From IMG/VR virus record IMGVR_UViG_3300045988_151777, positions 1 to 44,073 of that record: 44,073 bases of DNA; one strand, 5' to 3'. The notes under the pieces were generated by a model that was not told the DNA's origin, searched no databases, and worked only from the letters and a program-made list of their open reading frames with translations. Position numbers and translations under genes: made by a program. Of this stretch, positions 10,007-37,533 are shown piece after piece; the stretch's first letter is position 1, and each line of letters opens with the position of its first letter. Source of the stretch: a virus.

Positions 10007-10360
10007 TCACTGGATACCCAGATACTTTCTGACTGCAGGAAGCACAATTCCAACCGCCTCCTTGCCAATCATTCCGCCAAGACCAGCCATCGCCCCGCCA
10101 AACTCATAACCAAGTCCATAAGCGTGGCAAGCCATGCAGATACACAACCCCATAATCGCCGACGCCAAAATCGCTGAACAGAAGTCGAGCCAACGGAAAG
10201 GCTCTCCTTTCGACGTCCGATTCAAAAACATTGCCGCCTGTGCAATAGCTGCTACCCCCGCGGAAAAAAGGTAGGGAAAAGTCTCGCTGTGTTCCTGCAT
10301 GGGAATCTCGTTCTCGTTGACTACCGCAAGTAAACCAGACGCGCAAGCCAACAACTGCAC
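10007..10360 (-). CDS. Holin-like multi-TM protein (start uncertain: GTG 10360 or ATG 10300)
   Basis: Three or four hydrophobic helices. It lies immediately upstream of the endolysin. The motif copy overlaps the GTG start. Confidence 0.55.
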   Translation of the reverse strand: MQLLACASGLLAVVNENEIPMQEHSETFPYLFSAGVAAIAQAAMFLNRTSKGEPFRWLDFCSAILASAIMGLCICMACHAYGLGYEFGGAMAGLGGMIGKEAVGIVLPAVRKYLGIQ

Positions 10361-10366
10361 CCCCTC
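10348..10366 (-). promoter_or_regulatory. Conserved late-region motif, copy 5 (GAGGGGGTGCAGTTGTTGG)
   Basis: The 17-mer at 10349-10365 is identical to those at 16318-16334 and 37516-37532. It lies upstream of the lysis cassette. Confidence 0.6.
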
Positions 10367-10444
10367 GGACAGCTTGGAAATAGAAGGTTCCGCTTCGATG
10401 CAGTAAACTGGAACACGTTTCTTCTTTCACCAAAGAAGGTTTTT

Positions 10445-10843
10445 ATGAAAACTTCTTTATGTTTCGCAGCGCTTTTGCTTTCGTCTGCCTTTCTTGCGGG
10501 GTGTCAATCGCCTACAACGATTGTTAACACTGCACCTCAGCAAATCACTCTTGGCACCGTACAAAAATCCATCCATAAGGGGATGACTCAACCCGAAGTT
10601 ATCGCCGAACTCGGGGCCCCCACTATGGTGACTCGCGACAAAGCAGGCATTGAAGTTTGGGTTTACGACAAAGCAAGCACCATTGCCACGACATCAAACG
10701 TTTCAGGCTACGGCACTCTGATTCTCACCGGAGCCTCTGGACACCAATCCGCCAGCGTTGTCACACAAAAAACACTGACTCTGATCCTTAAGTTCAAGGA
10801 TGCCGAACTTTCGGAATACTCTTACCGTTACTCATCCTTCTAA
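10445..10843 (+). CDS. Lipoprotein, BamE/SmpA-OmlA-like (moron)
   Basis: Signal peptide plus lipobox (SAFLAGC). ITLGTVQKSIHKGMTQPEVIAELGAP...VWVY resembles the SmpA/OmlA fold. It is on the opposite strand to the surrounding late genes. Confidence 0.65.
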   Translation: MKTSLCFAALLLSSAFLAGCQSPTTIVNTAPQQITLGTVQKSIHKGMTQPEVIAELGAPTMVTRDKAGIEVWVYDKASTIATTSNVSGYGTLILTGASGHQSASVVTQKTLTLILKFKDAELSEYSYRYSSF

Positions 10844-10853
10844 GGGAGTTTCC

Positions 10854-11342
10854 ATGAAAAAATTGTGTTTCTTGGCGTTAGCCGCACCGATGCTTCTTGG
10901 GGGCTGTGTCACCGTTGATTCAGTCTTTGGCGAATCCGATGCGCCACTGTCAGCTGTAGCTCTCCAAGCGTTGCAGACACGAGAATTTGAAGCCACCGAG
11001 GATGAAGCGTTCCGCGCTGTGATTTCGACTTTCCAGGATTATGGTTACACGATTTCCTCTGCCGATAAAACGACAGGACTCGTCCTGGGGAAGACCACTT
11101 CGGATGCTTCTTTCAGCCGAATGTCCGGAATTGTTCGAGTGGAATACAACAAGGCTTCTGCCTTCATTGAGAAGGTAGCTCAGAACCGCGTCAAGATTCG
11201 GGTCAGCATTGTGAAATATGTTTCCGCAAGAACTGAATTAGGCGGCGGTGGAGAAAAAGAAGTTGTCCGCACAAAGCCTCAGATGTATCAGGATATTTTC
11301 AACAAGATCGAGCAATCGCTCTTCCTGAAGAAAAACATCTAA
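10854..11342 (+). CDS. Lipoprotein of unknown function (162 aa, moron)
   Basis: AAGGGAG lies before ATG 10854. MKKLCFLALAAPMLLGGC provides the signal and lipobox. Confidence 0.7.
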   Translation: MKKLCFLALAAPMLLGGCVTVDSVFGESDAPLSAVALQALQTREFEATEDEAFRAVISTFQDYGYTISSADKTTGLVLGKTTSDASFSRMSGIVRVEYNKASAFIEKVAQNRVKIRVSIVKYVSARTELGGGGEKEVVRTKPQMYQDIFNKIEQSLFLKKNI

Positions 11343-11373
11343 ACGAAAAACCCCGGTCGAGCCGGGGTTTCGC
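11341..11373. terminator. Bidirectional rho-independent terminator
   Basis: 9-bp stem AAACCCCGG/CCGGGGTTT (11348-11356 pairing with 11362-11370), flanked by A/T runs. It sits between convergent genes. Confidence 0.75.
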
Positions 11374-11383
11374 ATTAGGCGGG

Positions 11384-11617
11384 CTAACGCATTGATGGCG
11401 GCAACTGCCTTCGCTCAAGCTCGCTTTCGTAGCTCTCTTGACAGTGATACTTGTCGAAAAAGAGCAGCGTATCGACCAGCTTTCGAGGCCACGAGATGCC
11501 TTTTTTCTGCTCGATTCGCCAGCAATGACTAGACAAAGACTCATCAGGCCATCCGCCAAGAATCGTATTGACGAGCTGGTCAAGCGCAATCAACAAGTTT
11601 TTCAGATAGCGGATCAT
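11384..11617 (-). CDS. Hypothetical protein (77 aa)
   Basis: ORF overlapping the upstream gene by 4 nt. It has conserved-looking Cys/His/Trp residues. Confidence 0.6.
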   Translation of the reverse strand: MIRYLKNLLIALDQLVNTILGGWPDESLSSHCWRIEQKKGISWPRKLVDTLLFFDKYHCQESYESELERRQLPPSMR

Positions 11618-15164: not shown

Positions 15165-16274
15165 TTAAACCTCTTCTTTGTATACAACCTTACGGCTCAA
15201 GTCGGCCACTGCCGCCGACGCTTCGCCCGCCAAAGCCAGCGCTTCAGCCACATCACCCTTGCCGAGAGCGCCGATCCAAATATCCAGCTCGTCCCCGGCC
15301 TTCGCGTCAAACGTCAGGCGGAACGTGGTGGAAAACGTATCCTGCGCCCCGACTTCCGTGAAGTTCTGCCCGATAGCAAGAACGAGGCCGTTCCAAGCAA
15401 CTCGTAGATGGTGACGGTCCACGAGGTACTTGATACCTGACGGGATGACGATATCTGTGCCAGCGGGCGTATCAGCCGACAGCGCCCAAAATTTCTCGGC
15501 GCATCCTGTGCCGTTCACGATCAGAGTGTTGTCAGCCTCAGCCTTGATCCGGTCGATCTGAGTATTACCCTCGCTGACAAGGCGCTGATCCTGCCTATCG
15601 CCTTCGGTGACAAGGCGCTGATCCTGCCTATCGCCTTCGGTGGCGAGCCGCTGATTTTGCTTGTCGCCTTCGGTGACAAGGCGCTGATACTGCCTATCGC
15701 CTTCCGTTGTAATGGCGTCGATGACTTCTTTCTGATGTTCGAGAATGTCGTCCCGACTTTTCTTCGCATCCGCCGCACTCGCGGCGGCGGCTTCCGCGTA
15801 GCCCTTAGCGATGTCCGTTGCAGTTTCAGCCGCGTCGAGGAGCTTTTGCTTCAGCTCCTGCGGGGTCATCGAGTCTGTGGGATCAGTAACAATGGCGCGC
15901 TCAACTTTCTCCAAAAGCTGCTGTGACAAAATGGTTTGTTTGTCGTCAACCTCATTAAGCGTCTCAGGATAGAAGCCGCCTTTGTTTGTAAAAACTGCCA
16001 ACTGGTTGTACGGCACGTTGCTGATAATCGCCAAGCGAATACCTTCCGCTAAGGCCTTTTTCAGCACCACCTTTCCGCCCGGGGATATGTCTTGGTTTGC
16101 GTTTAATGAAACCGTATAGTCCGTGTTGAGTACCAATGTCTCTTCGCCGTTATCGGACGAACGCGCAACAATGAGCTCACTATCCTCAAAAATTTTGAAA
16201 GAAAAAGCAAACTCTGTAGTTGCCCCGTTACCGGTATACGGCCCGGCGCGCCGAAGTGTAGAAGCGACAGTCAT
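15165..16274 (-). CDS. Tail fibre protein with N-terminal particle-attachment domain and 11-aa tandem repeats
   Basis: The N-terminus GPYTGNGATTEFAFSFKIF...DYTV resembles podovirus fibre/spike adaptor domains. It sits after the giant internal protein, as T7 gp17 does. Confidence 0.7.
   Translation of the reverse strand: MTVASTLRRAGPYTGNGATTEFAFSFKIFEDSELIVARSSDNGEETLVLNTDYTVSLNANQDISPGGKVVLKKALAEGIRLAIISNVPYNQLAVFTNKGGFYPETLNEVDDKQTILSQQLLEKVERAIVTDPTDSMTPQELKQKLLDAAETATDIAKGYAEAAAASAADAKKSRDDILEHQKEVIDAITTEGDRQYQRLVTEGDKQNQRLATEGDRQDQRLVTEGDRQDQRLVSEGNTQIDRIKAEADNTLIVNGTGCAEKFWALSADTPAGTDIVIPSGIKYLVDRHHLRVAWNGLVLAIGQNFTEVGAQDTFSTTFRLTFDAKAGDELDIWIGALGKGDVAEALALAGEASAAVADLSRKVVYKEEV
15543..15707. 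repeat. 33-bp tandem repeat array (about 5 copies) inside the tail fibre gene
   Basis: 15576-15608 and 15609-15641 are identical. Diverged copies are at 15642-15674, 15675-15707 and 15543-15575. The array encodes (TEGDRQxQRLV)n. Confidence 0.9.
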
Positions 16275-16316
16275 GGAGAAATCCTCGTGATGTCGGAATT
16301 CTCCATAGACGCCGCT

Positions 16317-16335
16317 TCAACAACTGCACCCCCTA
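16317..16335 (-). promoter_or_regulatory. Conserved late-region motif, copy 4 (TAGGGGGTGCAGTTGTTGA)
   Basis: Identical 17-mer. It includes the TAG stop of the giant ORF and lies 42 nt upstream of the fibre ATG. Confidence 0.6.
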
Positions 16336-19300
16336 CTCATCGATCTTTCCGGAGAAACCGAACAACGGTGCCAGAACGGCGTCCACGCCCTCGGCCTGGC
16401 CGGATTCGATGGCACGGACGCCCTTGATCGTCCGGTTGATCTGCGTGGACGGTGCACCGGTCAGAGAGCCGGCAATGTCAACGAGGGCTTTCAACCCACG
16501 CCAACTCAAGGGATCAGTGGCCGCCTGCATTGCATTGGCCGTGTTGGCAATCATGCGGGTGCCGGCAGGGCCGTTATAGCCGAACAAAGGTTCGCCGGCG
16601 ATAAGCGACTTGGCCGTGCTGGAGACCTCTCGCAGCCCCAAGAAAAGCCCCAGGTGATATTCGACCACGGCACCCAAAGGTTTACGCAGCCACTGTTTCG
16701 TCCAGTCCTCATCGTCGTCATCATCCGAGTCATGCGCCTGCAGCGCCTCACGGAACAACGACTCAAGTACCGGCATCACGGCACCCATGAAGAGCAACCG
16801 TGCCGCAGCCTTCGCCCGGTCATTCTCGCCCATAGCTTCCACGACACCCATATTGAGCGCCGCGTTCATCCACGAGTAGAAGACCGTGAAGAGTCGCGCC
16901 CCCTGACTCCGTTCAATGGCGGACAGATCAGACACATTACCGGACGACTGCGTATCAATCACCACCTGGTCAGCCATAGCAATCGCCTTGTCCTCGGAAT
17001 TCCCCTCGCGGGTGTAACGCTCATAGGCCGCCTGCCACGCGATGGAATCCACGATATTTTGCATGATGGTCATCATGACGTAGGAGTGATCTTTGAACCA
17101 GTGCTTGCCAGACTCAAGCCGGTTCCGAACCTGCGCGATTTCACGGTTCTGCGTGAGTCCGCGCAGACGCATGGCTTCCGACTTCTTGGTGATGGCTCTA
17201 TGCAACCCCACCGGATCCGAAATGAACTTCCCGACGGCCGTCATCACGGGGGCGATCCCTACGCGCGGGATGACGTACCCTATGCCCGTCAGCTGGACAA
17301 AGGCCGACGTGACACTGAAGCCCATCGTGGCAACGCCAACATTCGCCGCCATGCGGTTGACCCAACTGTCGGCAGAGTCACGGCCGCCTGTAGCAATGTC
17401 CTTGCGCCAGTCTTCGAACTGCTTAGCCACAAGGTAACCATACCGCTCCTTAATAGCCTGACGCAGTCCAGAGTCCCGGCCGTTCACACCGTCCAAAACA
17501 CGCTTGGTTTCGATCAGCCATTCGTGCCAAGCCAGATCATGGATGACATCATTGAAGCCTTCATATAGGGCTGCTAGATCGATTCGAAGCGGCATGTGCA
17601 CGTCACCCTGCGCACGGGACTTGGTGAAGGATCGGCGCGTCGTGGCGGACTGGTAGGCACCCTGCATTTCCTGCCGGACATCGTTGGCGTCGGCGTACTT
17701 GGCCGCGCGGTTCGATCCACGGGGGTCAAACTTCACCGGATAGTAGCCGCCGGACACCTGGATGATTTTCCCTTCGGCCGTCTTCACCATGAAGGGCTGA
17801 TAGTCGATCCACTCAGGTTCCGTGCCGAATACCCGCTTTTCCTTCTCCGCAATAAGCGGACGCAACTCCTCGAATTGCTGCCACACGGCTTCAACGCCCC
17901 TCCAGTCGGCTTCCGTCAACGTAGCGAAAATGGCCTGCAGCGCTTCATCCGTGAATCGACAATCGCCATCCACCAGGCGCTGACGGTTACTGTCGTTGCC
18001 GCAGTTCAATGCCACAGCGATTCTTTGCCCGTGTGTGAGGGGCTTGGAGAACCCCGGGATGATTACCGGGTCTTCATCCTGGCTCTTCTTAAACACCGGG
18101 GCCAGCTTTTCGGCCAATGTCTTCGAGACCTTGGCGCGCATGGAGTTTTCAAACGTCGAACGCTCGTTGGCCGAACGGATGAACAAGTTCCAGAAGAAAC
18201 CGCCCGACTGGTTCTGGTCGAAGATTCGGCACCAGGACTGAATCTTGACGTGGTTCAACAAGAACTGATGCACGTTGTCGCGCCAGCGCTCCCAACGGGT
18301 AAAGGGTACTCGTTCGTTTTCAATGACGTCACGCCCCTGGCGGTCGGCCGCTTCCTTAATGGCCTCCTTGCCCTCCTTCACAATTTCATCAATACGACCC
18401 AGTTCCTCCGCAAGGTTCTGGTTATAGACGTTACGGCCCAGCGTCTCCAGCTGCTTCAACACCGAGAAGAAGTCCTGAGAGTCGTAGCCCGTCATGTCCT
18501 TGGCGTGCTCGTGCGAATCAATGAAGCGTTGCAGTCCTTCAATCGGCGTGCCGGCGTCCTCGACCTCCTTAATGAGTTCCTGCAACTGCGCCGGATCTGC
18601 GGCGAGTTTTCCGAAATCCTCCCGCTCCTTGGCCGTCATGCTCGCCACGCTGTGGGCGTCCAGCAGGGCCAGGATCAGTTTCTTGTAAGCCGGGTGAACG
18701 GTCTTACTCTTCATCGCCCGCTTAGCCATACGCACGCCACGCTGATAACGGTCGAGGGTTTCAAGGGCCGCACGAGCCATTTCGTGGTTAAGCACCTGAC
18801 CGCGCTTCGCTTCAAGGCATGCCCCGAAGTCAGCCTTGCGCATCGCTTGTTCGGCCATGGCGGCACAGCGCCGTTCGGCATTCATGAAAGTCCCCGGTCG
18901 AATGTCCGACAACTTCATGTTGCCGATCTGCTCAACCGCGTATTCGCGGGCGGCCGAGACCATCAGCTGCCGCTTGCCGAGAGCACGCGCCAGGGCATTA
19001 AATTCAGCCGTAATGAAGCGGGAACGGGTTTCGTTATGGGCGGCAAGGTTCGACTGCAACTCGTCGAATGCATCGGGATTCATGCCGCCCTCAATGCGCA
19101 CCTTGTAGGCCACGGACTTGATGGCCTCGGTCTTCGCGTCGTTCATGGACTTCAGTTCGAGTAGATCTCCGATAAGTCCGACGACGTCCGTCGTGCCGGC
19201 GGTATTGGCCAACACTTCAGGAGAGACCCCGCGGCCTTCCGTCACCCACCCGCGATCCATCAGCAACTGTGCCGTTTCCGCATCAATCCCGCAGCGGCTC

Positions 19301-22300
19301 AGCGGCTTGAGTTCAATCGTCATGCGGGACGTCGTGCCGTCCTCGCTCTTGAGGCCGTGCGTCAGCAACGACAACGCCCGGAACCGCGGTTCTTCCAGGA
19401 TTTCGTCGGTGCGCTTGTTCACTTCGTCCCTGCGTTCCCGCAGGATGCGGCGGGCCTCTTTGCGGCGAATGTTGCCGTAGATCCGCAGCACCCCGTGAAC
19501 GGCCTTAGCGATAAGGCCTTCGGCTTCTTGCGTCGCCTCTTCGTTGAGGGCGTTGTAGGCCGCCAGCTCCTCGTCGGTCATCCCCAGGCGCTTGCCGATC
19601 TCGCCGTCGAACAATGCGCGCATACCAAGTTTCTGCTGGGTCTCCATGGCCTGCTGTTCCGTGGCGAACATGAGGTCATAGAGCTTTCGGACTTCCGGGC
19701 TGATCGGGTGCGGTTGCCTTGTGGCCTGCGCGTAAATATCCATCAACCACTTTTTGAAGCGGCCGAAGATCGTCTTCATTTCTGCGTTCGGCGACACACC
19801 TTCGAGCAAGTAGGATTCGAAGCCCTCAGCAAAGAGCTCGTGCATCCCTCGCTGGTCATTGATTGGCATTGCGGCCCACGCACGGACAGCGGCAGCCACT
19901 GTCTTGAGATCATCGGTCACGCCGAGATCAAGCACGCCTTCCTGTTGTCCCCAGCGGAAAAACCCGCCGAGATTCGTGAGGAAGGCTCTCTCCCCGTCTG
20001 TCAACTCGCCGCCGGCCAATACCTTGTCCGCAATATCCTGCGCCAGCATTGTGTCGGCATCCAGCCATGCGTGAGCGGACTCATGCAGGAACGTGGACTT
20101 GTCGGCGCTTTCCATCAGCGTCATTACCCCGCCTTCGCCCGGACGTACGTCGCCGGCGTTGCTGGGCATCATGCTGCCGCGGGTTCCGGATTGTTCCGGC
20201 TGCTCGAGGATGTTGAGAATCTTGAGGGCCGTATCGTCCCAAATCACAGCACAGTTGCCGTCGGGTTCGCTGAAGTACTCAAGCCCCTTGATACCATAAA
20301 GGTTGAGGAGCTCGGAGGCCTCCTTGCTGCCGCCAGCATACGCCGTAAGCCAGCTGTAGACGTCGCGCCCTTCGGTCGAATCCTTGCCGATGAGTTCAAT
20401 CACCTTATTGCGGGCATCCGCTCGCGGGGACGTTGTGCCCTTGTCCAGGTCGTCCATGCCTTCGGCCACCAGGTCGAACGCCAAGTTCTGCAGCGCTTTC
20501 CGGACAACCACCGGCTGGTCAACCATAGCGGCTTCTTCGCTCAGAAGCACATCCGAGTCCGGAATTTCCGTCCGGTAAACGCGCCCCTCCGTGCTGGGCG
20601 TGTATTCGATGCTGTAGTCCTTCGGCTGCTGGTAGATCTTCGCGAGTTCGTTCCGCAGTTTGGACGACGTCGCCTTATCCACTTGGCCGCGTTCCGTGTC
20701 CTCGTTGAGGCGCTTGATGGCCGTCTCGGCCGCGCGCTTCACCTGCGCAGGCTTCGGATGCTTCTGCGTGCCCGGCATCTCCCGCAGCACCCACGTTGCG
20801 GCCAAGTCTTCCATGTCCGCGCTTTCGAGGTTGCGGCTGACGGGCTTCCCGTTCACCGTGTATTCCCCACCGCCGGCCAAGGCATCACGATAGCTTTCGG
20901 CCGTCTTGCGGTTCATGGCGAAGTAAAGGCCATAGCCGTGCTGCTGCGTGCCGGCGCCGGCCCCAATGTGATCCAGTGTGAAGCGGTCGAACTTGAAGGG
21001 AGAACCGTGGTAAGCCGTCTGGGCATACGCACCGGCAATACCGAGCGCAGCCTTTTCCTCGGCCTCGGCAAAGAAGGTGCCGATCTCTTCCGGAGAAGCG
21101 GAATCGAATTCGGTGTCGTCTACAATGCGGCCTTCCGGCGTGTTGTAGGACAGGGCCAGGTAATTCCCTTTGGAAGAGTTTTCAAGGATTCCCAGCTGTG
21201 CCGGCGTCGGCGGCCGCGAGATCGACGCGACTCCGTGAGCGGAATCGATTCGCATTGCACCGGTACGGGCCATGAAGTCATACATCGCCTGAACACCGCT
21301 TGTGTCCATGACTTCCGCGACGTCTGCGTGATCGACCTGACGGCCGTTAACGTCTTGTTCTTCAAGGCCCCAATGGCGTCCGGAGCCGTCCAACATCGTG
21401 CCGTCCGGAAGAATATAAAAGGCCTCGTCAATGTTATCCGTCGTGCCGAAGTTATCCACTGCCTTGCGGAGCAATTCTTCGTCCGGCGTGAAAGCGTTTT
21501 CGGAAGACTGGAAGAAACCGGTAGCCAACGCATTGTCAGCGTCCGGAAAGACTTCATGCACCAAAGCGTCGTCCGCTTCAGTCCACGTAATGTAGGGGAA
21601 GTTGTGCTTGATGCCGTTGCTGGGATCCTGGGCCAGCTTCTGCAGCTGGATCATGATCTTGCCGGGCACCTTGTACGGATCCAGCTTTCGTTCGATCTGC
21701 CGGCCATGTGCCGACGTCACGGCTGCGGCGTTGAGCGCCTGGACGCGACCCTGATACTGCGGCCGCACATTGTCGTGCTGATCCCCAAGAAGGCAAACGG
21801 CACCACCCCGGCCGAAATGGTGGACGATGTAACCGTCAAAGCCGGCCGCCTTGATAAAGTGCTCTGTCCACGTAAAAGCCCAGTCGTCGTTTGAAGACTC
21901 CTTGCGGCCCTTTGCCAACAACCCCAGCGGGTCTTCATCAAGGTCGTAGATATTGTTGAGCCAAATACTGTGCGCTTCGCGGCCAACACCTTCTTCCGGA
22001 ATGATCCCCTTTCCGGTGTCGAGATAGAAGTAGATGCGGGAGTAAACATCGCTGAGCGGCCCGGTCTTAGTGAGGCGTTTCAGTTCTTGGCCCTTCAGAC
22101 CGGTACCGTAGTAGCGAGAGTTGAGCGACGGCCGGTTGACCGCACTCATGTGAATGCCGAGTACTCGAACCGCATTGGGGCGGCCCTTTTCACCGTACTC
22201 AGCCGTAGTCGGTACGTCAGACTCGCGGACTATTCCGCCTTCGAATCTTTGGCCGCTTTCGCCCGGCGATCGTGTTCCGCGAACACCGCCTTCGGCAGAT

Positions 22301-25300
22301 CGTTCGTCCACCGATCGTACACCGCCTGTTCCTGCGGTGTATACCCCTGACTGTCCGAAGCCTCTTGGGCGGCTTGCGATTTTTGCTTTAATCGCTTGTG
22401 CCAGGCGCTTGTCTGTTTCGGACTGAAGATCAGCATCGTACCCAGCGGATGTTTCTTGTCGAACTCCGCCGCTTCTTCCGGTGTCATTTCTCGCATTTGT
22501 CTTTTCCTCTTCGGAGTAGGGCTCAAGGAAACCCGTGTAGGCATCTGAGACGCGATACACCATCTGGTCACCATAGCCTTCAACAATCGAGTTAAGCCCC
22601 GCTTTAATTGCCTCAATGTTCTCGGCGCCAACCGAAAGCATCATCACACCGCCGGCGGTGGACTGCCCCATAATCAGGCGTTCGCCGTTGGAGTCACGGA
22701 TCTGGTCGATATGGTTCCGGTAAAGGTCATCGACCTGTGCTTCGGTGAAGCCGTCCGGCAACTGGATTCGGATGACCTTGCTCGTGAACATTCCCTCGCC
22801 GTTGGTCTGGCTGATAGCCATAACCGAGTCCTGTCGCAGATAGGATGCTAACAGACGTCCGACCTTGACATAGTCTCCACCATCGGCAATACGACAAAGA
22901 ATCGAATAATTTGGGTCACCGAGATAGCCGCCGCGCTGAAGCTCAGGTTCACCAATGTGGGCATGAGTTTGTTCGGCCACACGCTCGAGCAACCACGGGA
23001 CGATTTCCCGAGTCACCGCAAGTTTATCCGCCGGCGACAATTCGTTCCACTGGGCCACGGCTTCCGCGTTGTTCGGATCCGGTGCGGCCTCCATCGTAAG
23101 CACCGGCTCGGGTTCCGGCTGACGGACGTCGTCGTAAAGCGTGACGCCGCTGCGGTCGTAGGTCTCCGTAATCCGGTCATTGAAAGGCGTGTCCTGCCAC
23201 GACAGTTTCGACAAGCCGCCGGCCGCGTCGAAGATCTTCTGTCGGGCCTCATCCGCCGAAATCTTGCCGGCGTCGAACTCCTTCCAAATGTCGTCAACCA
23301 CTGAGCGCAAGACTCGTTTGCGGTTCGGCTCAAAGAGGACTCGCACGGCCTCCCAGGTAATCGACTGTATCTCACGGGGGCTGAGGCCCACGCGTTCGGC
23401 CGCACGGCGGTAGGCTTCAAAGTGAAGCGGGTACGTGCCGTTCTGGCCGGACGTCTTGTTGCCGACGGCGCCAAAGTTGTCCTGCACCGGCTGACTGTTG
23501 GAGCTCTGAATCGTCAGGGTATCCGCACCCACGGCATGCGTGTCAATCGTCGCGGCCTTGGCGTTACTCGGGTCGTAAAGATTGTTGTAGAAGTCGCGTA
23601 CCTTGAACTGCGTACCGATCTTGTCATAGATGTTGTCTACGCTACCGTCCACGATAACCGATAGGGCGTCGGCGATGGACTGCGGGTTAAAGAAGAACGC
23701 CTTCGCCGGCTTCCCCTGACCGCCGGGCACACTCGCCAAACCGCCTACCCCGCCTTCAGGAGTGAGCACGTTGTAAGTGGACGGATTCGTTACGGCATCG
23801 TACGCGCGCACCCACAACGCGGCTCCGCGCATCTGATCGGCCTGAATGAGTTCTTCCAGGGACTTGCCCTTGATCTCGTCGAAGCTGACCTTCTTATCGG
23901 ACTCGCACAGAGTTTTCAACGCCGTCTGCATTTCGGCCGACGGCTTCTCGCGCCGGGCGCTGAAGTAAATATCAAACAAGCGTTCGGCGTTGGTCATGTT
24001 GTTGAACCAGCCGTTCTGGGGGCTGAAGATGGCAATCACGGCCGCCACCTGACGCAAGCGCAGACCGTAGCGCTGAGCCCACACACGGGCTGTCTTGTTG
24101 CCGCCGTCATACCACAACTTAGCGCGTTCACGTTCTGCCGCCGGCATCTTGTCATAAAGCCAAACAAGATTGTCGGCCATAAAGTCAATGATGCGTTCGG
24201 ACGCCTTACCGGCATTCCGGACACGGCCAACGGCACCCTTTACGCCGGGGATGGTTTTCATGGCCGCCACGGCGCGTTCAAAGTAGCGGCTGTTTTTCTT
24301 GGCTTCAGCGAAGTCTGCCCACTGCCGCGCGAACCGCGGGTTCGGGTAGTCCCCCTTCTTCACGGCGGCCTCAGACGGCATAGCCGTGGAAAGCTGCTGT
24401 TGGAACGCCGGAGTTTGCGACTGCTGCCGACGGATCCGTAGATTCATCTTGCCCATGATTTCCTTGGGGCTCAATCCGGTCTGCTTGGCACGGATAGCCA
24501 GCCAAGAAGCCCAGGGACGCGTCTGCAAGTCGGCCACATCTTCAGCCGTGCCGGCGTCGATCAACTGCTTGCGAATAGCGGCAACCTCGGTGTCAATGGC
24601 CTTACGCATCTCGGCGTCGGGCTTCGTGTCCTTCACTATCTTGTCGAAGGCCGCCACGGCTTCCTGTTTGCCGTTCTTCATGAAGTCCTCAGCCTGACGC
24701 GGACTCATGCCGTCGGCATCTACGCGGGACTCATAAAGGAGACTGTTGGCCGCTGCTTCATCCGTCGCTGCCAACTTCACGACGTCAGACACGGGGATAG
24801 CAACGTCGGACTTATTCTGGGCTGCCGTCTCAATGCGGGCCGCGAGTTCCGGAGCGGCCTGGCGAATCTTGTCTGGAACGCCGGCATCCACCAAGTCCTG
24901 AGCAAACGAGAACACGGACTTATCCTGGCCGACGTCGTTGGCCCATTCGGCAATCGTCTGGCCGTCCTTCACCTGTGTCCCCATGGCGGCCACGGCGGCC
25001 GTCACCCTCTGCATATTCTCGCCCAGCACCTTGGCAGCCTGCGCCTGTTGCTGTTGCGCGTTGTAGGCCGCGTTCACTGAAGCGCTCATAGAGACGACTT
25101 CCACCGGTGCAGACGTGAGTTCCCCAATGGCTTCAAAGAGGACGTCGGCCCAGTTGATTTCGTCACCGGCGGCAAGCGAACCGAGCGCTTCGCCGGCGCC
25201 GCCTAAGACACCCTGCAATCCGGCCTGCGTGAGGTGGTTCTCAAGGTTGTAGCCCCACATACCCCCGCGGGACGTCGGCGTTGCAGAGCGGGCCATACCG

Positions 25301-28454: not shown

Positions 28455-29054
28455 CTAACCCCAGGTCGAGGGATATTCGTCGGACGCTGCAGCGTTTGTA
28501 GATCCGCCGGTGTCCTCTGCCGGCGCGTTGCGGGACGCCTGATCCACGTAGTAGCCGGCCACCTTCGTGATTCCGGTAAGCAGACTGTCGGCCGCCACCA
28601 GACCTGAATTAGACTTGTTGCCGCCCGCAGCGATGCTCGCCTGATACTGAGCCGTTGCCTTGCTCATGTAGCCCATGGCTGCATTGAGGCCGTTGGCGTA
28701 GGCCGTGTTGGCGTCCTGCTGCTTATAGAGGTCGGTCGTCGCCAAAATCTCTTTGCTGGATCCGTACCCAATGGCGATACCGTTGGCGGCCATAGCGACG
28801 CGCTGCTTGCTCTTTAAGCGCCCGTACTGGCCCGTGATGTTGGCGATATTGCGGTTCGAGGCGGCAAGCGCTGCCTGCGCCTGAATCGTTGCCCGCTGCT
28901 GATTGATCTCGGCGATACGCTGCTGTATCCGCGACAGTTCCGTCGCTGAGCGTGACGCCTGATAACTGGTAAAAATGCTGCCGACGGCCTGAATCGCGGT
29001 GCCCCAAAGCCCCGCGGTCTGGACGGTCGTCAAGCCTGTGGATTCTCCGGCCAT
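28455..29054 (-). CDS. Internal virion protein (gp14-position, 199 aa)
   Basis: Position after tail tube B. A/G/Q/S-rich with a hydrophobic N-terminal segment. Confidence 0.6.
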   Translation of the reverse strand: MAGESTGLTTVQTAGLWGTAIQAVGSIFTSYQASRSATELSRIQQRIAEINQQRATIQAQAALAASNRNIANITGQYGRLKSKQRVAMAANGIAIGYGSSKEILATTDLYKQQDANTAYANGLNAAMGYMSKATAQYQASIAAGGNKSNSGLVAADSLLTGITKVAGYYVDQASRNAPAEDTGGSTNAAASDEYPSTWG

Positions 29055-29098
29055 TGTTGCCCCCGTGGTAATGCCGGCATTTCACAACGCCACAGGGG

Positions 29099-29113
29099 CC
29101 AACAACTGCACTA
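29099..29113 (-). promoter_or_regulatory. Conserved late-region motif, copy 3 (short form TAGTGCAGTTGTTGG)
   Basis: 12-nt core at 29100-29111 abutting the TAG stop of tail tube B. It lies 44 nt upstream of the next ATG. Confidence 0.5.
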
Positions 29114-31795
29114 CCCGCCGAGCTGCATATTGGCGGCGATGCTGAGAATGGTCAGAGGAAGCGGCGACTTCTGCTTGACGGACACCGCTCCGGAATCACT
29201 CCATTCGGGCTGCAGGTCAATACTCAGGCCGCCCGTCACCGGATCCGGGGCAGAACCAAGCGACTCGGTCGTGCGCTGCCGGAACTCGACCTCTTCACCG
29301 TCTTCCGGCCCGATAAAGATGCCGCTCGACCGGTACACGCGCATGAATACCGAGTTGACGTTCTTGGTAACCGAACCGCCGTCGGATCCGTCCTTCATCG
29401 GAATCGTCACCGGCAACGTGCAAATTTCAGCGTCAATTGGCAAGCCCACCTGGACTACAGAGGCTTCGGCGTCAAGTGTGATCTTGCCGTCCTTCACGAC
29501 TTTCTGATTCATCTCGGCCCCGTCGGCCAAAACACTGACGGTCTTTCCTTCAAGCCACGTGAGGCCGCTGATCGTCTTCGTCGGCTGCCCCGAATACGTA
29601 CCGCCACAGTCCACAAAGAAAGCATCTGCGTCGTTATCTTTCTCGCGCTCCCCCATGCGCTCAATAAATCGGTGAGTTGCCCCGTTAATCTGGCGGCGTA
29701 CCACACAATAGACCGCATCAATCTTGTCCTCGGCCACCGCCGCCACAGACTCGAAAGCACCGTCCGTCGTGTGTTCGTGCCAGGCTCCGATCTGCTGATC
29801 CGGAACGTAAGTGAGCCCCAGCAGCTTTCCGGAAGAACTGACGAACCAACCAATTGGGTACGGCGCCTTGGAAAAGGCCCCGTCAATCACCTCGTAGCTG
29901 TCAAAGAGGTGCGCCGCCCGGATACTCACGTCGCCCGTCACGTAGCCGCCGGCGTTGTAGTTGTAGCCCAGTTCCCGGATATGCCCCCCGCGTGCGGCCG
30001 CATAGAGCACGGTGTTGTTCACAATCAACGGTTGCACCATATTGGAACCGACAAAGGACTGGCTTTTGAGTTGCACCGACTCTGGCGTGATGGCGTCAGA
30101 GTTGACTGACGTCACCACCCATTCCCCAGCCTCCGTGAATACAAGCAGGCGATTAAGAGGCACCAGGTGGAAAATCTCGTGGCGTTCACGGCTGGCGATT
30201 TTGAAAGACACTCGGTCATCGTCACGCACCGGAATGGAGTAGGAAAAGTCGCTGTCCGTCCCCGTTCGTGTCATCCAGATACCCTGAGGTTCCGTTGTCG
30301 TTGCCGCAAAAACGCGACGCTGCTCAAAGTACGTCACGCACTGAGGATAATCGTTCGCCTTGCCGACGGTGGCCCTAGCTGTTGCACCTGATCCGCCGGA
30401 TTTACTGCCGTCAATGTGAACGACAGGATTGGTGTATCCTGAGCCTGGTTTCTTGACTACGATTCCAATAATTTTGCCGTTTTCAGTTAAGGCCGCAAGC
30501 TCGGCCCCCGATCCAGTAGGGTCGGTGACATAGACGATAGGGGCGGTGTCATGGGCCAAGACGGCGGGAAAATAGTAGTCGCACCTTTCTCCTTTAGAGC
30601 CACACGCCAAACTTGCGTGAAATTGGGCTCCCTCCGTATAGCCTTCCCCGCGAGATGTGAGGGAAACGCCCGTCAGGTAAGCGTCCAACCACGTGCCAAA
30701 GACCATATTGTTGTTTACGTAAGTTAGGCGCCCTTTCCCTCCGGAGCCGCTGCCTTCGATAGTTCCATCAACGTAAAACACTTTATCAAATGTTGGGTTG
30801 GGGTAGGGAATACCTTGCTTGTCGTCATGATGGAATTTTTCAGCGGCTAAGTTTACGGATACGGTTTTTCCGTTAGATCCGACGATTCGTCCTTTTTGCG
30901 AAATATATAAAACGCTTCGCAATGAACCATACCCGCTCCCGCCATTCGTTACCGTCACCGACGTAATGCCTCCACTCGAATGGAAAAGCTCGTCCACACG
31001 CGGCGGAGTGAATTCGGCGTTAGGGGCAATGTTGTCATCAATGATGCTTTGTTCCTCAGTCTCACCAATGTAAGCGTAGATGCCGCCTTCATTGCGATAG
31101 ACGCGGTAGAACATCGCCCCTGCCACGGCATCCCATGAAATCTGAATGGTGGTACCTGTGTTATAAATGTTGGCAGTACAGGAAACTATCGAACTTCGCT
31201 GAGATTGAATCGTGCGGTCGGCATTGAGAGCCGTCACGCAGTACTTGAAGGTGTACTTGTCGGCGTTGATTTCGTTTTCGGCCGATGTCGCCTTAATCGC
31301 ATTCACGTTTTTCGGCGCCGCTAAGGCCGGATTGAAATCAATCTTCTTGAATCGCCAGTCTCGTACGCTGTAGCGTCGCAATTCCGTCGGCGGGTAACCC
31401 CGATGCGTAATTGTCAGAATGTCGGCCGACTGCACGTAATGAAGCGCCATCACATCGTCTGCGTCATACTGAGAGGCAATCTCATATGGCTCTGTTCCCG
31501 CTGCGTTCTTGAGCGTAGCTCCTTGCGTATGGAACCGGACGTACTTGTGGCCGAACTCAAGAATCATCGTCTGGTCTCGGGAGAACGTGAACGGGATCAG
31601 CCTCACCCGCTTGTCCGGGTACTTGGCCTCGGCCACATACGCAAACCCCGGACGGTTTTGGACGGCCCCCTGGGGCAGGCAGATAAAGTTCCGGCAAACC
31701 TTTAAGCCGGCCTGATACTTGGGGTCATCGCTACGGCCCAACATCATCGGGCCCATGATGCCGCCGGCGAAACTCTTCTGATTGACTACGGTCAT
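29111..31795 (-). CDS. Tail tubular protein B / nozzle (gp12-like, 894 aa)
   Basis: The N-terminus KSFAGGIMGPMMLGRSDDPKYQAGLKVCRNFICLPQGAVQNRPGF is typical of podovirus nozzle proteins. It follows the gp11-like gene. Confidence 0.75.
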   Translation of the reverse strand: MTVVNQKSFAGGIMGPMMLGRSDDPKYQAGLKVCRNFICLPQGAVQNRPGFAYVAEAKYPDKRVRLIPFTFSRDQTMILEFGHKYVRFHTQGATLKNAAGTEPYEIASQYDADDVMALHYVQSADILTITHRGYPPTELRRYSVRDWRFKKIDFNPALAAPKNVNAIKATSAENEINADKYTFKYCVTALNADRTIQSQRSSIVSCTANIYNTGTTIQISWDAVAGAMFYRVYRNEGGIYAYIGETEEQSIIDDNIAPNAEFTPPRVDELFHSSGGITSVTVTNGGSGYGSLRSVLYISQKGRIVGSNGKTVSVNLAAEKFHHDDKQGIPYPNPTFDKVFYVDGTIEGSGSGGKGRLTYVNNNMVFGTWLDAYLTGVSLTSRGEGYTEGAQFHASLACGSKGERCDYYFPAVLAHDTAPIVYVTDPTGSGAELAALTENGKIIGIVVKKPGSGYTNPVVHIDGSKSGGSGATARATVGKANDYPQCVTYFEQRRVFAATTTEPQGIWMTRTGTDSDFSYSIPVRDDDRVSFKIASRERHEIFHLVPLNRLLVFTEAGEWVVTSVNSDAITPESVQLKSQSFVGSNMVQPLIVNNTVLYAAARGGHIRELGYNYNAGGYVTGDVSIRAAHLFDSYEVIDGAFSKAPYPIGWFVSSSGKLLGLTYVPDQQIGAWHEHTTDGAFESVAAVAEDKIDAVYCVVRRQINGATHRFIERMGEREKDNDADAFFVDCGGTYSGQPTKTISGLTWLEGKTVSVLADGAEMNQKVVKDGKITLDAEASVVQVGLPIDAEICTLPVTIPMKDGSDGGSVTKNVNSVFMRVYRSSGIFIGPEDGEEVEFRQRTTESLGSAPDPVTGGLSIDLQPEWSDSGAVSVKQKSPLPLTILSIAANMQLGG

Positions 31796-32423: not shown

Positions 32424-32450
32424 TACGAAAACAGGGGCGCGAAGCCCCTG
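32424..32450 (-). terminator. Rho-independent terminator after the capsid/cement genes
   Basis: The mRNA reads CAGGGGC-UUCGC-GCCCCUG followed by UUUUCGU. Confidence 0.7.
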
Positions 32451-32474
32451 CGGTTGCTCATGGCGAGCGGTCTA

Positions 32475-34629: not shown

Positions 34630-34909
34630 CGCTATCTCTCATTTTCAAAAACTGCGGGACTACCTCGGGGGTGAACCGTGCGAGCCGATCCCACAAATAC
34701 AAACCGACGTTGCGCTGCCCTTCGCCGAAGGACATCGTCAACGCATTGGGGTTAAAGCCGTTGCGGAACACGCCGCAAAAGCCCATAGCCCGGTGAAGAA
34801 TGCGCAGTCCGCGTTCGTCAGAAGTGAGCCATTCCCAGTCGTTTTTCTCCCGCTGGGCGGCCTGCTCCTGCTTCTTCTTGGCCTCTGCGCGTTTGTCATT
34901 CGTCGTCAT
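34619..34909 (-). CDS. Bbp19-like small protein (96 aa)
   Basis: WEWLTSDERGLRIL...FGEGQRNVGLYLWDRL resembles Bbp19-family proteins located between portal and scaffold genes. Confidence 0.6.
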   Translation of the reverse strand: MTTNDKRAEAKKKQEQAAQREKNDWEWLTSDERGLRILHRAMGFCGVFRNGFNPNALTMSFGEGQRNVGLYLWDRLARFTPEVVPQFLKMRDSDES

Positions 34910-34934
34910 GCCGGCATCTTCCTCTGTGATTTCG

Positions 34935-34954
34935 TCAACAACTGCACCCCCCTA
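34935..34954 (-). promoter_or_regulatory. Conserved late-region motif, copy 2 (TAGGGGGGTGCAGTTGTTGA)
   Basis: Copy with one extra G. It includes the portal TAG stop and is flanked by ATGCCGGCAT palindromes at 34908-34917 and 34956-34965. Confidence 0.6.
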
Positions 34955-36706
34955 CATGCCGGCATATCCGCTCATGGCTTTCATGGCGTCGGCAGAACTC
35001 GCCTGCGGAATGTTTTTGGCAATGTCGGAGAGCTGCTTGGCGGATTCGAGCTGCTGGGCCTGTTGCTGTTGCTGGGCCCGTTGTTCGCGCTTCTGATCCA
35101 CCTCTTCCTGACTCGGGATGATTTCCGGATCGACCCCCAACTGGTCGGCCAACTTGCGGGCCCACTTGTCCTCGTCGAGGTTGTCGATAGCGTTCGGCCA
35201 AACCTGAGAGGCACCGGCCAGGCTTTGAACGTAGGTACTCATAGCATCCACGCCGGCGGCACGCTGGGCCTGCGCCAGGATCGACACGTACTCAATGTTG
35301 ATGAAATCGCCCGGCCCCTTCTCTTCGGCGTTCTGCGTGTACTCTCGCTCCCCGAAAATGCTGTCCAGGCTCTTAATCTCGTCGGGCATCGGCGGGATCA
35401 GGTCGAAGCGCTGCATGCACTGCAGGGTCGTCGCGATCAGCGGGTCGAGGAGTTCGAGGTGAAGGCGCTCGAGCACCGGGCCCATAATCAGCATCTTTTC
35501 CTTGTCGAGCTTTTCGACTTCGTAAGCCGTGCGGCCGTAGCGAGCCGTCTGAGCCAGCATGAGGAAAAGATCCTTGTAGAAGTAGTTGTTGATGCTCTGA
35601 CGCTTGTCGTCAATGTCCACCTTAACGGCGTTTAGATCTAGCCTGACATCCCAGGCAGTCTTCACCTGCTGCGCCTGCGTGAGATTGCAGTAGCTGACGC
35701 CGCCGGGCCCGAAGTCGAGCGGCTTGCTCTCATACTCTTCCGGAACGAGCAACGGAGGGTTCACCGCATAGTCCGTGCCGCGCTCCTTGATGGTTGTTTC
35801 TTCCTGCAGCGCCATCACAACGCCCAGGGCCTTCATGCCGGGGCTGCGGCCGTATGGGGACCGCTTGCTGATGGCCCAGCGCGGGACAAGGCACGGGAAC
35901 GTCTTAAAGCCCTCCTCTCGAAGCACTCGATCCTGAGCGTTCGGGAGTTCGTCCGATCCAATCTCATCGGTGTATCGGCCGGCCGTCTCTTCGAAGTAGA
36001 CCCCGCGATAGGGCATGGAGTACTTGTCCTTCTTCGTCGGGTCGTAGTCCGGCCGCGGCTCAATGGCGTGGATGACCGTATGAGTCTTGAAGCATTGAGC
36101 GGGGTTCTTGGCCTCCCGGCGAACGCCGTCGCTCACGGCAGATTCCCCGAAGACTTCCACCATCTGGGCGGATGTCATGACAATCTGTCGATAGACGGTG
36201 TTCACCCGCTGTTCTGCGTCCTCTTCGATCCAGTACTCGCCGGCGGTCATCTCATGCAAATGGATGACCCTGCGGTCGGACGGCAACGCCACCAGGCAGG
36301 CCGTGCCGTAGCAGGCAAGTTCCAGGTAGGCATTGTTGAGCGCTTGGTAGACGTTGGACTTCGCGAAGACCATCTGCATTTCGGTCTGCAGTTCGGAGAG
36401 CCAGCGCTTGACGTTGGTGTTCTCATCCAATTCCGGAGAGCGCGTTGTAAGCCGGAACCAAGGGCGCGCCGGCGACGTCATGCCGCCCAGCATGCCGGCC
36501 CCCAGGACATCAATGGCATCCGTGGCCGTCGCGTCGTTGATGAATTCGTAGCCGGTCTCTTCGGACTCAACTCCGGGCACTTCATCAAACCGCCCTGTTT
36601 CCGGCAGGATATAGCGCTGCAGCTTGCGATAAAGCGGCTCAATGGGCGTTCGAGTCGCTTTCATCTGAGCAAGCCGTTGGCGCAGCTCTGATGCTTTTGC
36701 CTTCAT
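34952..36706 (-). CDS. Portal (head-tail connector, T7 gp8-like)
   Basis: 584-aa ORF between the terminase and scaffold genes. Acidic/Q-rich C-terminus. Confidence 0.8.
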   Translation of the reverse strand: MKAKASELRQRLAQMKATRTPIEPLYRKLQRYILPETGRFDEVPGVESEETGYEFINDATATDAIDVLGAGMLGGMTSPARPWFRLTTRSPELDENTNVKRWLSELQTEMQMVFAKSNVYQALNNAYLELACYGTACLVALPSDRRVIHLHEMTAGEYWIEEDAEQRVNTVYRQIVMTSAQMVEVFGESAVSDGVRREAKNPAQCFKTHTVIHAIEPRPDYDPTKKDKYSMPYRGVYFEETAGRYTDEIGSDELPNAQDRVLREEGFKTFPCLVPRWAISKRSPYGRSPGMKALGVVMALQEETTIKERGTDYAVNPPLLVPEEYESKPLDFGPGGVSYCNLTQAQQVKTAWDVRLDLNAVKVDIDDKRQSINNYFYKDLFLMLAQTARYGRTAYEVEKLDKEKMLIMGPVLERLHLELLDPLIATTLQCMQRFDLIPPMPDEIKSLDSIFGEREYTQNAEEKGPGDFINIEYVSILAQAQRAAGVDAMSTYVQSLAGASQVWPNAIDNLDEDKWARKLADQLGVDPEIIPSQEEVDQKREQRAQQQQQAQQLESAKQLSDIAKNIPQASSADAMKAMSGYAGM

Positions 36707-36708
36707 GC

Positions 36709-37023
36709 TCAGCTCCCGAGCGTCCCGCCCTTACCGAGCAAGTCCTTGTTGACCGGCGCCCCTCCGGCCCCTGTCAGGGTGGCCGAGTTACCCATTGCCC
36801 CGGACGTGTCGCCGGCGTCAAGCAAGCCTTCAATATCGGCCTGCTTTCGGTTGGCGCGGTTCTGCGCCTCGTCCTCGGCTGCAAGCTGCTTCTTGGCGGC
36901 CGCCTCCTGTTTACGGGCGTTCTCACGCTGGGCTTTGCGCTCCTTCGCGCTGCTGTAAGCACTGGACGCCGTACTGGCCGCGAGTGCGGCCACAGCGACC
37001 CATGCGGCTGCTGCTAACCCCAT
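36709..37023 (-). CDS. Small membrane/coiled-coil virion-associated protein (104 aa)
   Basis: N-terminal hydrophobic helix followed by a K/E/A/Q-rich helix. It lies immediately upstream of the portal gene. Confidence 0.55.
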   Translation of the reverse strand: MGLAAAAWVAVAALAASTASSAYSSAKERKAQRENARKQEAAAKKQLAAEDEAQNRANRKQADIEGLLDAGDTSGAMGNSATLTGAGGAPVNKDLLGKGGTLGS

Positions 37024-37475
37024 TTGAAGCTCCTTTCGTAGATTTTGGAAACCAAGGTGAAGTAGGGCTTGACAGACAGACTGCGGTCGAGGTGTCCGCC
37101 GGGCGGGCAGCTGATCTCAACGTGCTCAATGCGTTTGGCCTTAGCCAGGCGGTAGGCTGACGCCAGCAAGCGGCTGCCGACGCCTTTGTCGCGGTATTCC
37201 GGGAGAACGAAAAAGCCGTCCGTTGCCAGCATCGGGACGCGGTAATGCAGATGAAGCGTTATCAGGCAGCCGACAATGCCCACGGGCGTGTCATCGTCGT
37301 AGGCGACGTACACCACAAAGCAACCGGTGTTTTCCAGCGCTTCATAGTTCTGCCACGCCACGGCCCAATTACCGAACGACTCAATACCGGACTCGGCGGC
37401 ATACAGATCAAACAACGACTTGAATTTGTCGTCGGTCAATGCTTTGACCGGCGTCATCCGCACAGAAATAGTCAT
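37014..37475 (-). CDS. GNAT-family N-acetyltransferase (153 aa)
   Basis: FVLPEYRDKGVGSRLL provides the acetyl-CoA binding motif (R/Q-x-x-G-x-G/A). AAGGAGGAG lies before ATG 37475. Confidence 0.75.
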   Translation of the reverse strand: MTISVRMTPVKALTDDKFKSLFDLYAAESGIESFGNWAVAWQNYEALENTGCFVVYVAYDDDTPVGIVGCLITLHLHYRVPMLATDGFFVLPEYRDKGVGSRLLASAYRLAKAKRIEHVEISCPPGGHLDRSLSVKPYFTLVSKIYERSFKWG

Positions 37476-37514
37476 GCCCTCCTCCTTCGCCGGCATGATC
37501 GGCGGGGGAATAGG

Positions 37515-37533
37515 TCAACAACTGCACCCCCTA
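37515..37533 (-). promoter_or_regulatory. Conserved late-region motif, copy 1 (TAGGGGGTGCAGTTGTTGA)
   Basis: Identical 17-mer. It includes the terL TAG stop. Confidence 0.6.

Follow-up and report, generated by a model that had tools for sequence, protein, structure and literature searches.

Candidate factor-dependent late promoters with a phage-specific upstream element in a BPP-1-like podophage

Activator-dependent late promoters of phages are classical. In phage Mu, the late promoters Plys, PI, PP and Pmom, which are served by protein C, and the Mor-dependent middle promoter keep a -10 box but have no usable -35, the late promoters being spread over the late region. The small helix-turn-helix (HTH) activators C and Mor act over or beside the -35 region, and their genes lie just ahead of the late genes. 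Here we describe a comparable layout in a stretch of 44,073 nucleotides (IMG/VR record IMGVR_UViG_3300045988_151777, positions 1 to 44,073; hereafter the window), which represents approximately the whole genome of a temperate podophage akin to Bordetella phage BPP-1. Five co-oriented copies of a short element lie at junctions of its late region, and each is followed by a -10-like box. We consider it probable that these sites are five factor-dependent late promoters, in which a phage-specific upstream element is combined with a host-type -10, and that an HTH protein of the Bbp27 family is the likely factor.

The resemblance to Mu has its limits, since the Mor-family proteins are dimers of 129-140 aa with dyad-symmetric sites, whereas the window protein counts 72 aa, has no Mor-family match and would face an asymmetric site. 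In the T4 middle promoters, which are used by sigma appropriation through a MotA box and AsiA, a phage-specific box likewise stands in place of the -35 while the -10 of host sigma-70 is retained. However, the MotA box is centred at -30 and the window element near -35, T4 is virulent, and no MotA or AsiA homologue was named by the Pfam and PHROGs scans. The Ogr, Delta, B and Lpa systems of P2, P4, 186 and P1 are alike in that a temperate phage directs at least four co-regulated late promoters, each heading a cassette, through one small phage activator. The Ogr-type proteins, however, are zinc-finger activators acting on a dyad near -55, and in the late promoters of P1 an inverted repeat is found near -22; the window element and protein match neither system. 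A small HTH regulator encoded immediately upstream of terS and needed for the packaging and lysis genes is known from phages of Gram-positive bacteria (RinA, ArpU and LtrC), but there it serves one late promoter upstream of terS, whereas the window has five sites, none of them upstream of terS, and there is no sequence relationship. Three features would be new compared with these systems, namely the protein family, an asymmetric element that lies in the -35 region, and the frequency of leaderless starts; no new principle is involved.

BPP-1 is the model phage for diversity-generating retroelements, and phages of the JessA type infect the model bacterium Caulobacter. We found no account of late-gene activation in this phage group, and no published description of these promoters or of the Bbp27 family, in the literature searched, which did not take in the 2004 BPP-1 genome paper.

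Bipartite sites at five late-gene junctions

Nearly all genes of the window are minus-strand genes and extend from ~42.7 kb to 4.7 kb. Searches with Pfam and PHROGs identified terL, a GNAT gene, a T7-type portal, Bbp19, a GP7 capsid, Bbp16, an internal virion protein, a tail fibre N-terminus and a LydA-type holin, in agreement with the gene assignments that had been made at the five junctions in a preceding sequence-only reading; a 3318-aa virion protein, an M15 endolysin, an integrase and a CI/S24 repressor were identified as well. The element reads CAACAACTGCACCCCCT on the plus strand and AGGGGGTGCAGTTGTTG on the minus (late-gene) strand, with GTGCAGTTGTTG as its 12-nt core. Three copies are exact, namely those at the terL/GNAT and giant open reading frame (ORF)/tail fibre junctions and ahead of the lysis cassette. 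The copy at the portal/Bbp19 junction (34936-34952/53) has one mismatch, equivalent to one extra C on the plus strand (G on the minus strand), and the tube B junction holds a copy of the core (Table 1). Exact matching and shuffling confirmed these positions, the extra-C copy, the core copy and the shared orientation, all of which had been noticed before: 0.10 copies are expected by chance, and none of 100 shuffles reached five. In a scan with a two-block weight matrix built from the clade of the window phage, the five sites scored 30-36 bits. Since no other position on either strand exceeded 12.5 bits, the window contains exactly five copies. The element is not a dyad.

As had also been claimed, a stop codon is part of the extended element at several junctions. 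This was correct for three TAG stops (terL, portal and giant ORF), but the stop of tube B shares one base with the core rather than abutting it. The distance from the motif to the next ATG, first put at about 25-47 nt, was measured as 26-48 nt across the five copies. The copy ahead of the lysis cassette has neither a stop codon nor a co-oriented gene upstream and is preceded by ORFs of the opposite strand, so the lysis genes need a promoter of their own. We did not accept GTGCATTTGT at 39735-39744 as a sixth copy: its score is 10 bits, it is situated within a coding sequence that is conserved as protein (PGAFV) and has no usable -10 box, and its counterpart in a related contig (L097) precedes a normal Shine-Dalgarno sequence.

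A -10-like hexamer is found 14-15 nt after every copy, and is followed by a G+C-rich stretch that reads GCCGGC at three of the five sites. The earlier reading had found no shared -35/-10 pair downstream of the copies; as to the -10 it was wrong. In the register of this box the element spans about -43 to -27, with GTGC at -38 to -35, while the bases at -35 to -30 are CAGTTG or AGTTGT and bear no resemblance to TTGACA. For want of a -35, all five sites were missed by a standard sigma-70 consensus scan, which does detect the divergent early promoters beside the repressor gene. The -10 assignment was compared across the window clade, comprising 18 non-redundant sites from the window and relatives with 75-82% portal identity. 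At position +16 after the core 94% of these sites have A or T, at position +20 all of them do, and a -10 element stands at a set distance from the upstream site in 18 of 18. Their summed -10 hexamer score was 93, as opposed to 39.5 +/- 5.2 in shuffled downstream sequence, where 0 of 2000 shuffles reached 93.

At the Bbp19 junction the order is GAAGAT-GCCGGC-ATG, whereas the other four sites are followed by leaders of ~12-21 nt with a Shine-Dalgarno sequence. The mechanically called starts of GNAT (37014-37496) and of the holin (10007-10360) read through the putative promoter. Its geometry suggests later starts for both, at ATG 37475 and ATG 10300; the likely GNAT start (37473-37475) is preceded by GGAGGAGGG. 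Two other sigma classes were considered and dropped. A sigma-54 reading (GG-N10-GC) was set aside after inspection by eye, as the sites lack the GC at -12 and the Pfam-scanned ORFs showed no ATPase domain of the enhancer-binding type. An ECF-sigma reading, suggested by CGTCT downstream of two copies, was given up because the other copies lack CGTCT.

Table 1. Coordinates of the upstream elements, -10-like boxes, candidate activator gene and tube B hairpins of relatives
Feature	Position	Strand	Remarks
Upstream element AGGGGGTGCAGTTGTTG, terL/GNAT junction	37516..37532	-	terL TAG stop 37531-37533 overlaps
Upstream element AGGGGGGTGCAGTTGTTG, portal/Bbp19 junction	34936..34953	-	portal TAG stop overlaps
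Upstream element GGGTAGTGCAGTTGTTG, tube B/internal-protein junction	29100..29116	-	12-nt core 29100-29111; stop 29111-29113
Upstream element, giant ORF/tail fibre junction	16318..16334	-	TAG stop of the 3318-aa ORF overlaps
Upstream element ahead of lysis cassette	10349..10365	-	no co-oriented gene upstream; + strand ORFs 10445-11342
-10-like box GATCAT, terL/GNAT	37495..37500	-	15 nt past element
-10-like box GAAGAT, portal/Bbp19	34916..34921	-	14 nt past element; Bbp19 ATG 34907-34909 6 nt later
-10-like box TGAAAT, tube B/internal protein	29079..29084	-	15 nt past core; in hairpin loop; next ATG 29052-29054
-10-like box GAGAAT, giant ORF/tail fibre	16298..16303	-	14 nt past element; in 5' arm of hairpin 16272-16307
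-10-like box TTTACT, lysis	10329..10334	-	14 nt past element; likely holin ATG 10298-10300
HTH gene, Bbp27 family, candidate late-promoter activator	39496..39714	-	72 aa; directly upstream of DUF5681 ORF (small-terminase position) and terL
Tube B hairpin, relative L093	17708-17783		
Tube B hairpin, relative L094	17653-17715		
Tube B hairpin, relative L097	16425-16487		
Tube B hairpin, relative L098	14870-14932		

Conserved position and genome-specific sequence in related phages

The expectation that the motif would be kept among related phages held for its position, which is retained at the same junctions, and its sequence proved to be specific to each genome. In IMG/VR relatives with 98% portal identity, the 15-nt spacer at the terL junction differs at 5 positions, while the element, the -10 box and the leader are invariant. 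Relatives with 75-82% portal identity carry the element at the same three junctions (those contained in the DNA examined), and its changes are mostly common to all copies of a genome. Thus, the element reads GTGCAGTAGTTG in L093, GTGCAGTTGTC in L094 and L096, and GTGCGGTAGT in L097; in L098, two of the three copies read GTGCAGTAGT and the third reads GTGCGGTAGT.

The same design was found in BPP-1, the portal of which is 42% identical to that of the window. Its late strand contains four exact copies of GGGTGCCCGTGCC, located upstream of terS, at terL/GNAT, ahead of bbp19 and at bbp10/bbp9. They are followed 15 nt on by AAAACT, TACTGT, TAGAGT or TAGCCT, three of which conform to TAnnnT, and in three cases the ATG of the next gene comes 6-7 nt after the box, with no Shine-Dalgarno sequence. 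The annotated start of BPP-1 terS (L099, 25734-26318) runs through the predicted promoter, which suggests that terS starts later, at the ATG near 26250. In Caulobacter phage JessA the element is GGTGCGCAT(A/G)A, and terS is annotated to start exactly 6 nt past AAAAAT. Four copies of GGTACCCGTAT occur in Limnohabitans phage DC33, and dozens of IMG/VR contigs with ~40% portal identity each have an element of their own, for example GGTGCACGTACC, GGGTGCGCGCATCG, GGGTGCGCGTATC, GTGTGACCGTAAC, GGGACCCATAGGC, GGGGGTGTGCATAGG or GATGCACTTACCCA. Throughout the group, the same junctions bear a homogeneous, genome-specific element of 10-17 nt at about -43 to -27, with TAnnnT after it. In SPN1S and Vibrio phage 1.185.O, whose portals are related, no Bbp27 match was obtained and the promoter family is absent. 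At many loci (e.g. L099, L100, L180 and L110) the element resembles a pair of direct half-sites of the GT(G/A)C type, spaced 6 nt apart (GTGCCCGTGCC, GTGCACGTACC, GTACCCGTATC, GTGACCGTAAC), which may reflect the way in which a protein reads this DNA.

The distance to the start codon was determined for 97 sites from IMG/VR relatives. From the end of the -10 box to the next ATG it peaks at 5-8 nt (43 of 97 sites, 21 of them at exactly 6), as expected if transcription begins at the start codon. This argues for leaderless late mRNAs at several junctions in relatives, with the Bbp19 junction as a candidate in the window.

We read the sites as late promoters because the element is homogeneous within a genome and specific to it, because the junctions are conserved and all copies share one orientation, and because the spacing is fixed from the element to the -10 box and thence to the start codons. 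Of the options that had been listed in the sequence-only reading, a phage-specific late promoter or activator site is well supported by this comparison, notably by the fixed -10 spacing, the start-codon distance in relatives and the conserved position of a genome-specific sequence. From the sequence pattern we infer not only the promoter status of the sites and their transcript starts but also the role of the HTH protein as activator and its contact with the polymerase. In a promoter of this kind the element (about -43 to -27) would be separated by 14-15 nt from a weak -10 of the host type, behind which comes a G+C-rich discriminator; a -35 of the sigma-70 type is absent. Host RNA polymerase with the primary sigma factor would read the -10 box, and a phage protein bound to the upstream element would supply the missing -35 contact. 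Late in infection, or upon induction, this would switch on all five transcription units at the same time: the first from GNAT to portal, the second from Bbp19, scaffold and capsid as far as the tail tubes, and the others for the internal and giant proteins, the tail fibres and lysis. At some junctions (several in relatives, that of Bbp19 in the window) transcription would begin at or beside the ATG, giving a leaderless mRNA.

The Bbp27-family HTH protein as candidate factor

A gene at 39496-39895 with a sigma-region-4-like HTH had been put forward as a possible partner of the motif. Its partnership is supported indirectly, by co-occurrence and co-variation, as detailed below, but the gene is shorter (Table 1) and its product has a three-helix HTH of the resolvase/transposase type and is not a sigma factor. 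The interval 39496-39895 comprises two overlapping ORFs, merged by ORF calling into a spurious 131-aa ORF, and the HTH start at ATG 39714 was set by homology with relatives. The other ORF (39689-39895, minus strand) encodes 68 aa and overlaps the HTH start; its protein is conserved in L093-L098 (43-57% identity) but not in BPP-1, and has no family match.

The HTH protein is 42% identical over 66 aa to BPP-1 Bbp27 (78 aa), and a Bbp27-like HTH is the sole non-structural protein common to the window and BPP-1. The RefSeq label "endonuclease" on Bbp27 stems only from the likeness of its HTH to those attached to HNH nucleases. The family has at least 542 members; the 120 matches listed measure 76-130 aa, most of them 76-90, and none bears a functional name. 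The window protein fits the pattern of the family (~72-85 aa), VN..G.R.G..H...(T/S)D..V..(I/L)R.LH..G.SY......(S/K).(T/A)(V/I)..IC...R, in which G14, H17, Y40, C58 and R63 are invariant. Searched with Pfam and NCBIfam, it gave nothing above the curated cut-offs, the generic HTH matches in Pfam being below threshold, and PHROGs matches were weak (best E = 9e-5). The predicted structure (mean pLDDT 76) shows an N-terminal beta-hairpin and a three-helix HTH. The nearest sequences and folds are DNA-binding domains of resolvases, of the IstA and Sleeping Beauty transposases, of NarL-type regulators and of ECF sigma region 4, none of them significant.

Where enough upstream DNA was available, a homologue of the HTH gene was found in 36 of 38 related loci, always co-oriented, 2.6-4.8 kb ahead of the portal and immediately upstream of the terminase genes. 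The bbp27 gene of BPP-1 is directly followed by the first promoter copy. Furthermore, motif distance and HTH distance were correlated across 23 genomes with portal distance controlled (partial Mantel r = 0.39, P = 0.0004). This co-variation supports the link between HTH protein and promoter, without proving it. We regard the 72-aa Bbp27-family protein as the most likely late-promoter factor. The domains of resolvase (gamma-delta) and of Hin-type proteins bind as monomers to asymmetric sites of ~12 bp, and an asymmetric element would fit binding of this type. In the window, the HTH protein would come from an early or middle transcript that also bears the terminase genes.

Conceivably, the Bbp27 family could be an unrecognised class of minimal late activators (~75 aa, probably monomeric) that replace the -35 contact and make most late mRNAs leaderless in hundreds of proteobacterial podophages of the BPP-1 type, with co-evolution of promoter and protein giving each lineage a private late-gene code; we put this wider proposal forward tentatively, as the less likely outcome. 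The analysis provides a testable circuit made up of one small protein, a promoter code that varies from lineage to lineage, and a set of predicted start sites. Gene starts are corrected for BPP-1 terS and for the GNAT, holin and HTH genes of the window, and leaderless late mRNAs are to be expected in Gram-negative hosts. Protein-promoter pairs that prove orthogonal could serve as compact parts for synthetic transcription control.

Several points speak against factor-dependent promoters served by the Bbp27-family protein. The -10 boxes of the window are weak, matching TATAAT only at positions 2 and 6, or 5 and 6, and the spacing is not uniform, being 14 nt at three sites and 15 nt at two. In the material searched, no transcript 5' ends, binding data or expression data were found for this phage or its relatives. 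On a family-wide scale, plain searches for repeated 10-11-mers and relaxed -10 criteria with a strand control were too noisy; even the strict version hit 43 of 66 loci on the late strand as compared to 19 on the opposite strand. The group-wide claim is therefore based on the inspected families and the ATG-distance distribution, not on this strand count. With respect to the HTH protein, the fold matches are statistically non-significant, and the link to the promoters is correlative and confounded by phylogeny; portal and motif distances are also correlated, though less well, with HTH distance controlled (partial r = 0.30, P = 0.006). L097 and L098 have a nearly identical putative recognition helix, yet their motifs differ at one position, and L102 has the promoter family but no HTH match. 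Finally, the window phage, unlike BPP-1, has no copy ahead of its terminase genes.

Alternative explanations, junction hairpins and genome setting

Asymmetric sites in one orientation at gene ends are also known as the stoperators of cluster A mycobacteriophages, to which the repressor gp71 of phage L5 binds. By analogy, a phage repressor could bind the window sites and block stray late transcription in the lysogen. The likeness is close, as stoperators are asymmetric sites of 13-17 bp that share a single orientation, lie in short intergenic gaps and overlap stop codons. The window phage is temperate, to judge by its integrase and CI/S24 repressor, and a genome-specific motif would suit immunity specificity. 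However, a stoperator has the same sequence as the early-promoter operator and is not followed at a fixed distance by a -10 or an ATG; neither trait was seen in the window. No copy, even a degenerate one, is present at the divergent early promoters beside the repressor gene (42776-42857). Within the immunity region (42.5-43.6 kb) the only hit on the late strand scores 5.2 bits and the best on the opposite strand 12.5 bits (at 42631), far from the 30-36 bits of the five sites. The fixed distance to the -10 box, and to the ATG in relatives, would be unexpected for silencing sites. LexA-like S24 CI proteins usually bind palindromes, and the CI of the window is of this type. Moreover, the conserved partner gene heads the late region, outside the immunity region, and the design is shared by JessA-type phages, the JessA record being without an annotated integrase or repressor. 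We consider repressor-mediated silencing very improbable.

The conserved hairpins that follow the motif at two junctions bear on another explanation, in which the element acts at the RNA level: as a site of processing, as a signal for antitermination, or within a terminator module dividing the late cassettes of one long transcript. At the tube B junction, a hairpin (~29057-29099, minus strand) starts immediately downstream of the element, and its loop contains the -10 box. Five relatives retain this hairpin, 6 of its 16 pairs showing compensatory changes, and a T run comes after it in L097 and L098. This hairpin may be a terminator of, or a mask for, read-through RNA that overlaps the promoter. 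At the fibre junction of the window, the hairpin 16272-16307 (minus strand) includes the -10 region in its 5' arm and the tail-fibre ATG (16272-16274) in its 3' arm. At the equivalent junction of BPP-1 (bbp10/bbp9), a very stable terminator-like hairpin with a T run surrounds the -10 box TAGCCT (L099, 6123-6186, minus strand; -33.4 kcal/mol, z = -3.8).

Besides these hairpins and T runs, the restriction of the element to the mRNA strand would agree with a role in RNA. Against this, the motif lies outside the hairpins and is unpaired in the consensus fold, three of the five window sites fold no better than shuffled sequence or only weakly (z -0.1 to -2.1), and no Rfam family matches the sites. 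Neither TAnnnT at a fixed spacing nor an ATG 6-7 nt further on without a Shine-Dalgarno sequence would be explained. Both the RNA-processing and the recombination options of the sequence-only reading are unnecessary for the data and do not account for the fixed geometry, and an element acting in RNA likewise seems very unlikely to us. If the sites are promoters, the hairpins could be accommodated: at two junctions the hairpin wraps the -10 box, and read-through RNA could fold and be stopped or masked (terminating in some relatives), whereas RNA started at the promoter would lack the 5' arm. A further terminator-like hairpin was noticed at 32431-32451 (minus strand), within the 62 nt that separate Bbp16 from tail tube A, where GCAGGGGCTTCGCGCCCCTGT is followed by TTTCG. 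Similar ones occur after capsid-proximal genes of BPP-1, and the hairpin could attenuate transcription past the head genes.

The sites could also be promoters for an unrecognised phage polymerase or sigma factor, for instance a domain of the 3318-aa virion protein, since a long, identical, genome-specific motif at cassette boundaries recalls the promoters of single-subunit phage polymerases and the giant ORF is largely without annotated domains. The analogy with T7 class III promoters that had been drawn before was apt as to layout: these, too, are long, near-identical, phage-specific sequences in one orientation at late cassette boundaries, and they differ between related phages. It did not extend to the enzyme, as the window retains a host-type -10 box and no phage RNA polymerase gene is recognisable, in keeping with the sequence-only reading. 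Specifically, the Pfam scans showed neither an RNA polymerase nor a sigma factor domain in the ORFs examined, none was named by PHROGs in the ORFs covered, and a single-subunit RNA polymerase is reported absent from JessA-type relatives (PMC11053796). T7 promoters are single 23-bp blocks for the phage single-subunit polymerase. Instead of one block of ~20-23 bp that includes the start site and has no host-type -10, the window sites comprise an element, a variable spacer of 14-15 nt and a -10-like hexamer, and two-part sites with a TAnnnT box of the host type speak for the primary sigma factor of the host. A virion-borne polymerase such as that of N4 would be expected to serve early, not late, genes. 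A phage-encoded enzyme is, in our view, very unlikely. Least credible of all are module-exchange sequences between related phages with no role in expression, which would fit the location exactly at cassette boundaries and the variability of GNAT after the terL junction (26-43% identity or absent among relatives, as against 66-82% for its neighbours), but motifs of 12-17 bp are short for homologous recombination, cannot mediate exchange among phages in which they differ, and leave the orientation bias, the -10 box and the ATG distance unexplained.

Close relatives of the window phage exist only as metagenome contigs. A megablast search with 13.7 kb of the late region gave no match among cultured phages, and a scan of a metagenome contig collection matched no relative. 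A scan of a collection of species-representative genomes gave two matches (L097 and L098), both of them contigs in metagenome bins. These bins are named Anaerovoracaceae and Hallella faecis, and the contigs are probably mis-binned, because such names are unlikely for a phage of 57-62% G+C with proteobacterial-type modules.

Some further features of the genome were noted. Between the tail genes and the predicted lysis promoter, the minus-strand late region is interrupted by two plus-strand ORFs (10445-10843 and 10800-11342), one with a weak BamE-like match, which may form a moron cassette. The 3318-aa virion protein (16333-26289, minus strand) has a single Pfam match, DUF7178 at residues ~699-795, is mostly unannotated, and shows 35% identity over ~1300 aa to BPP-1 Bbp10. 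A C4 antisense RNA (Rfam RF01695; 67.7 bits as compared to a gathering score of 45) lies at 3266-3350 on the plus strand, with an AntA/KilAC antirepressor gene downstream (3640-4446, plus strand). Together they make up a P1/P7-type immI module in a BPP-1-like podophage that also bears a CI/S24 repressor gene (42890-43561).

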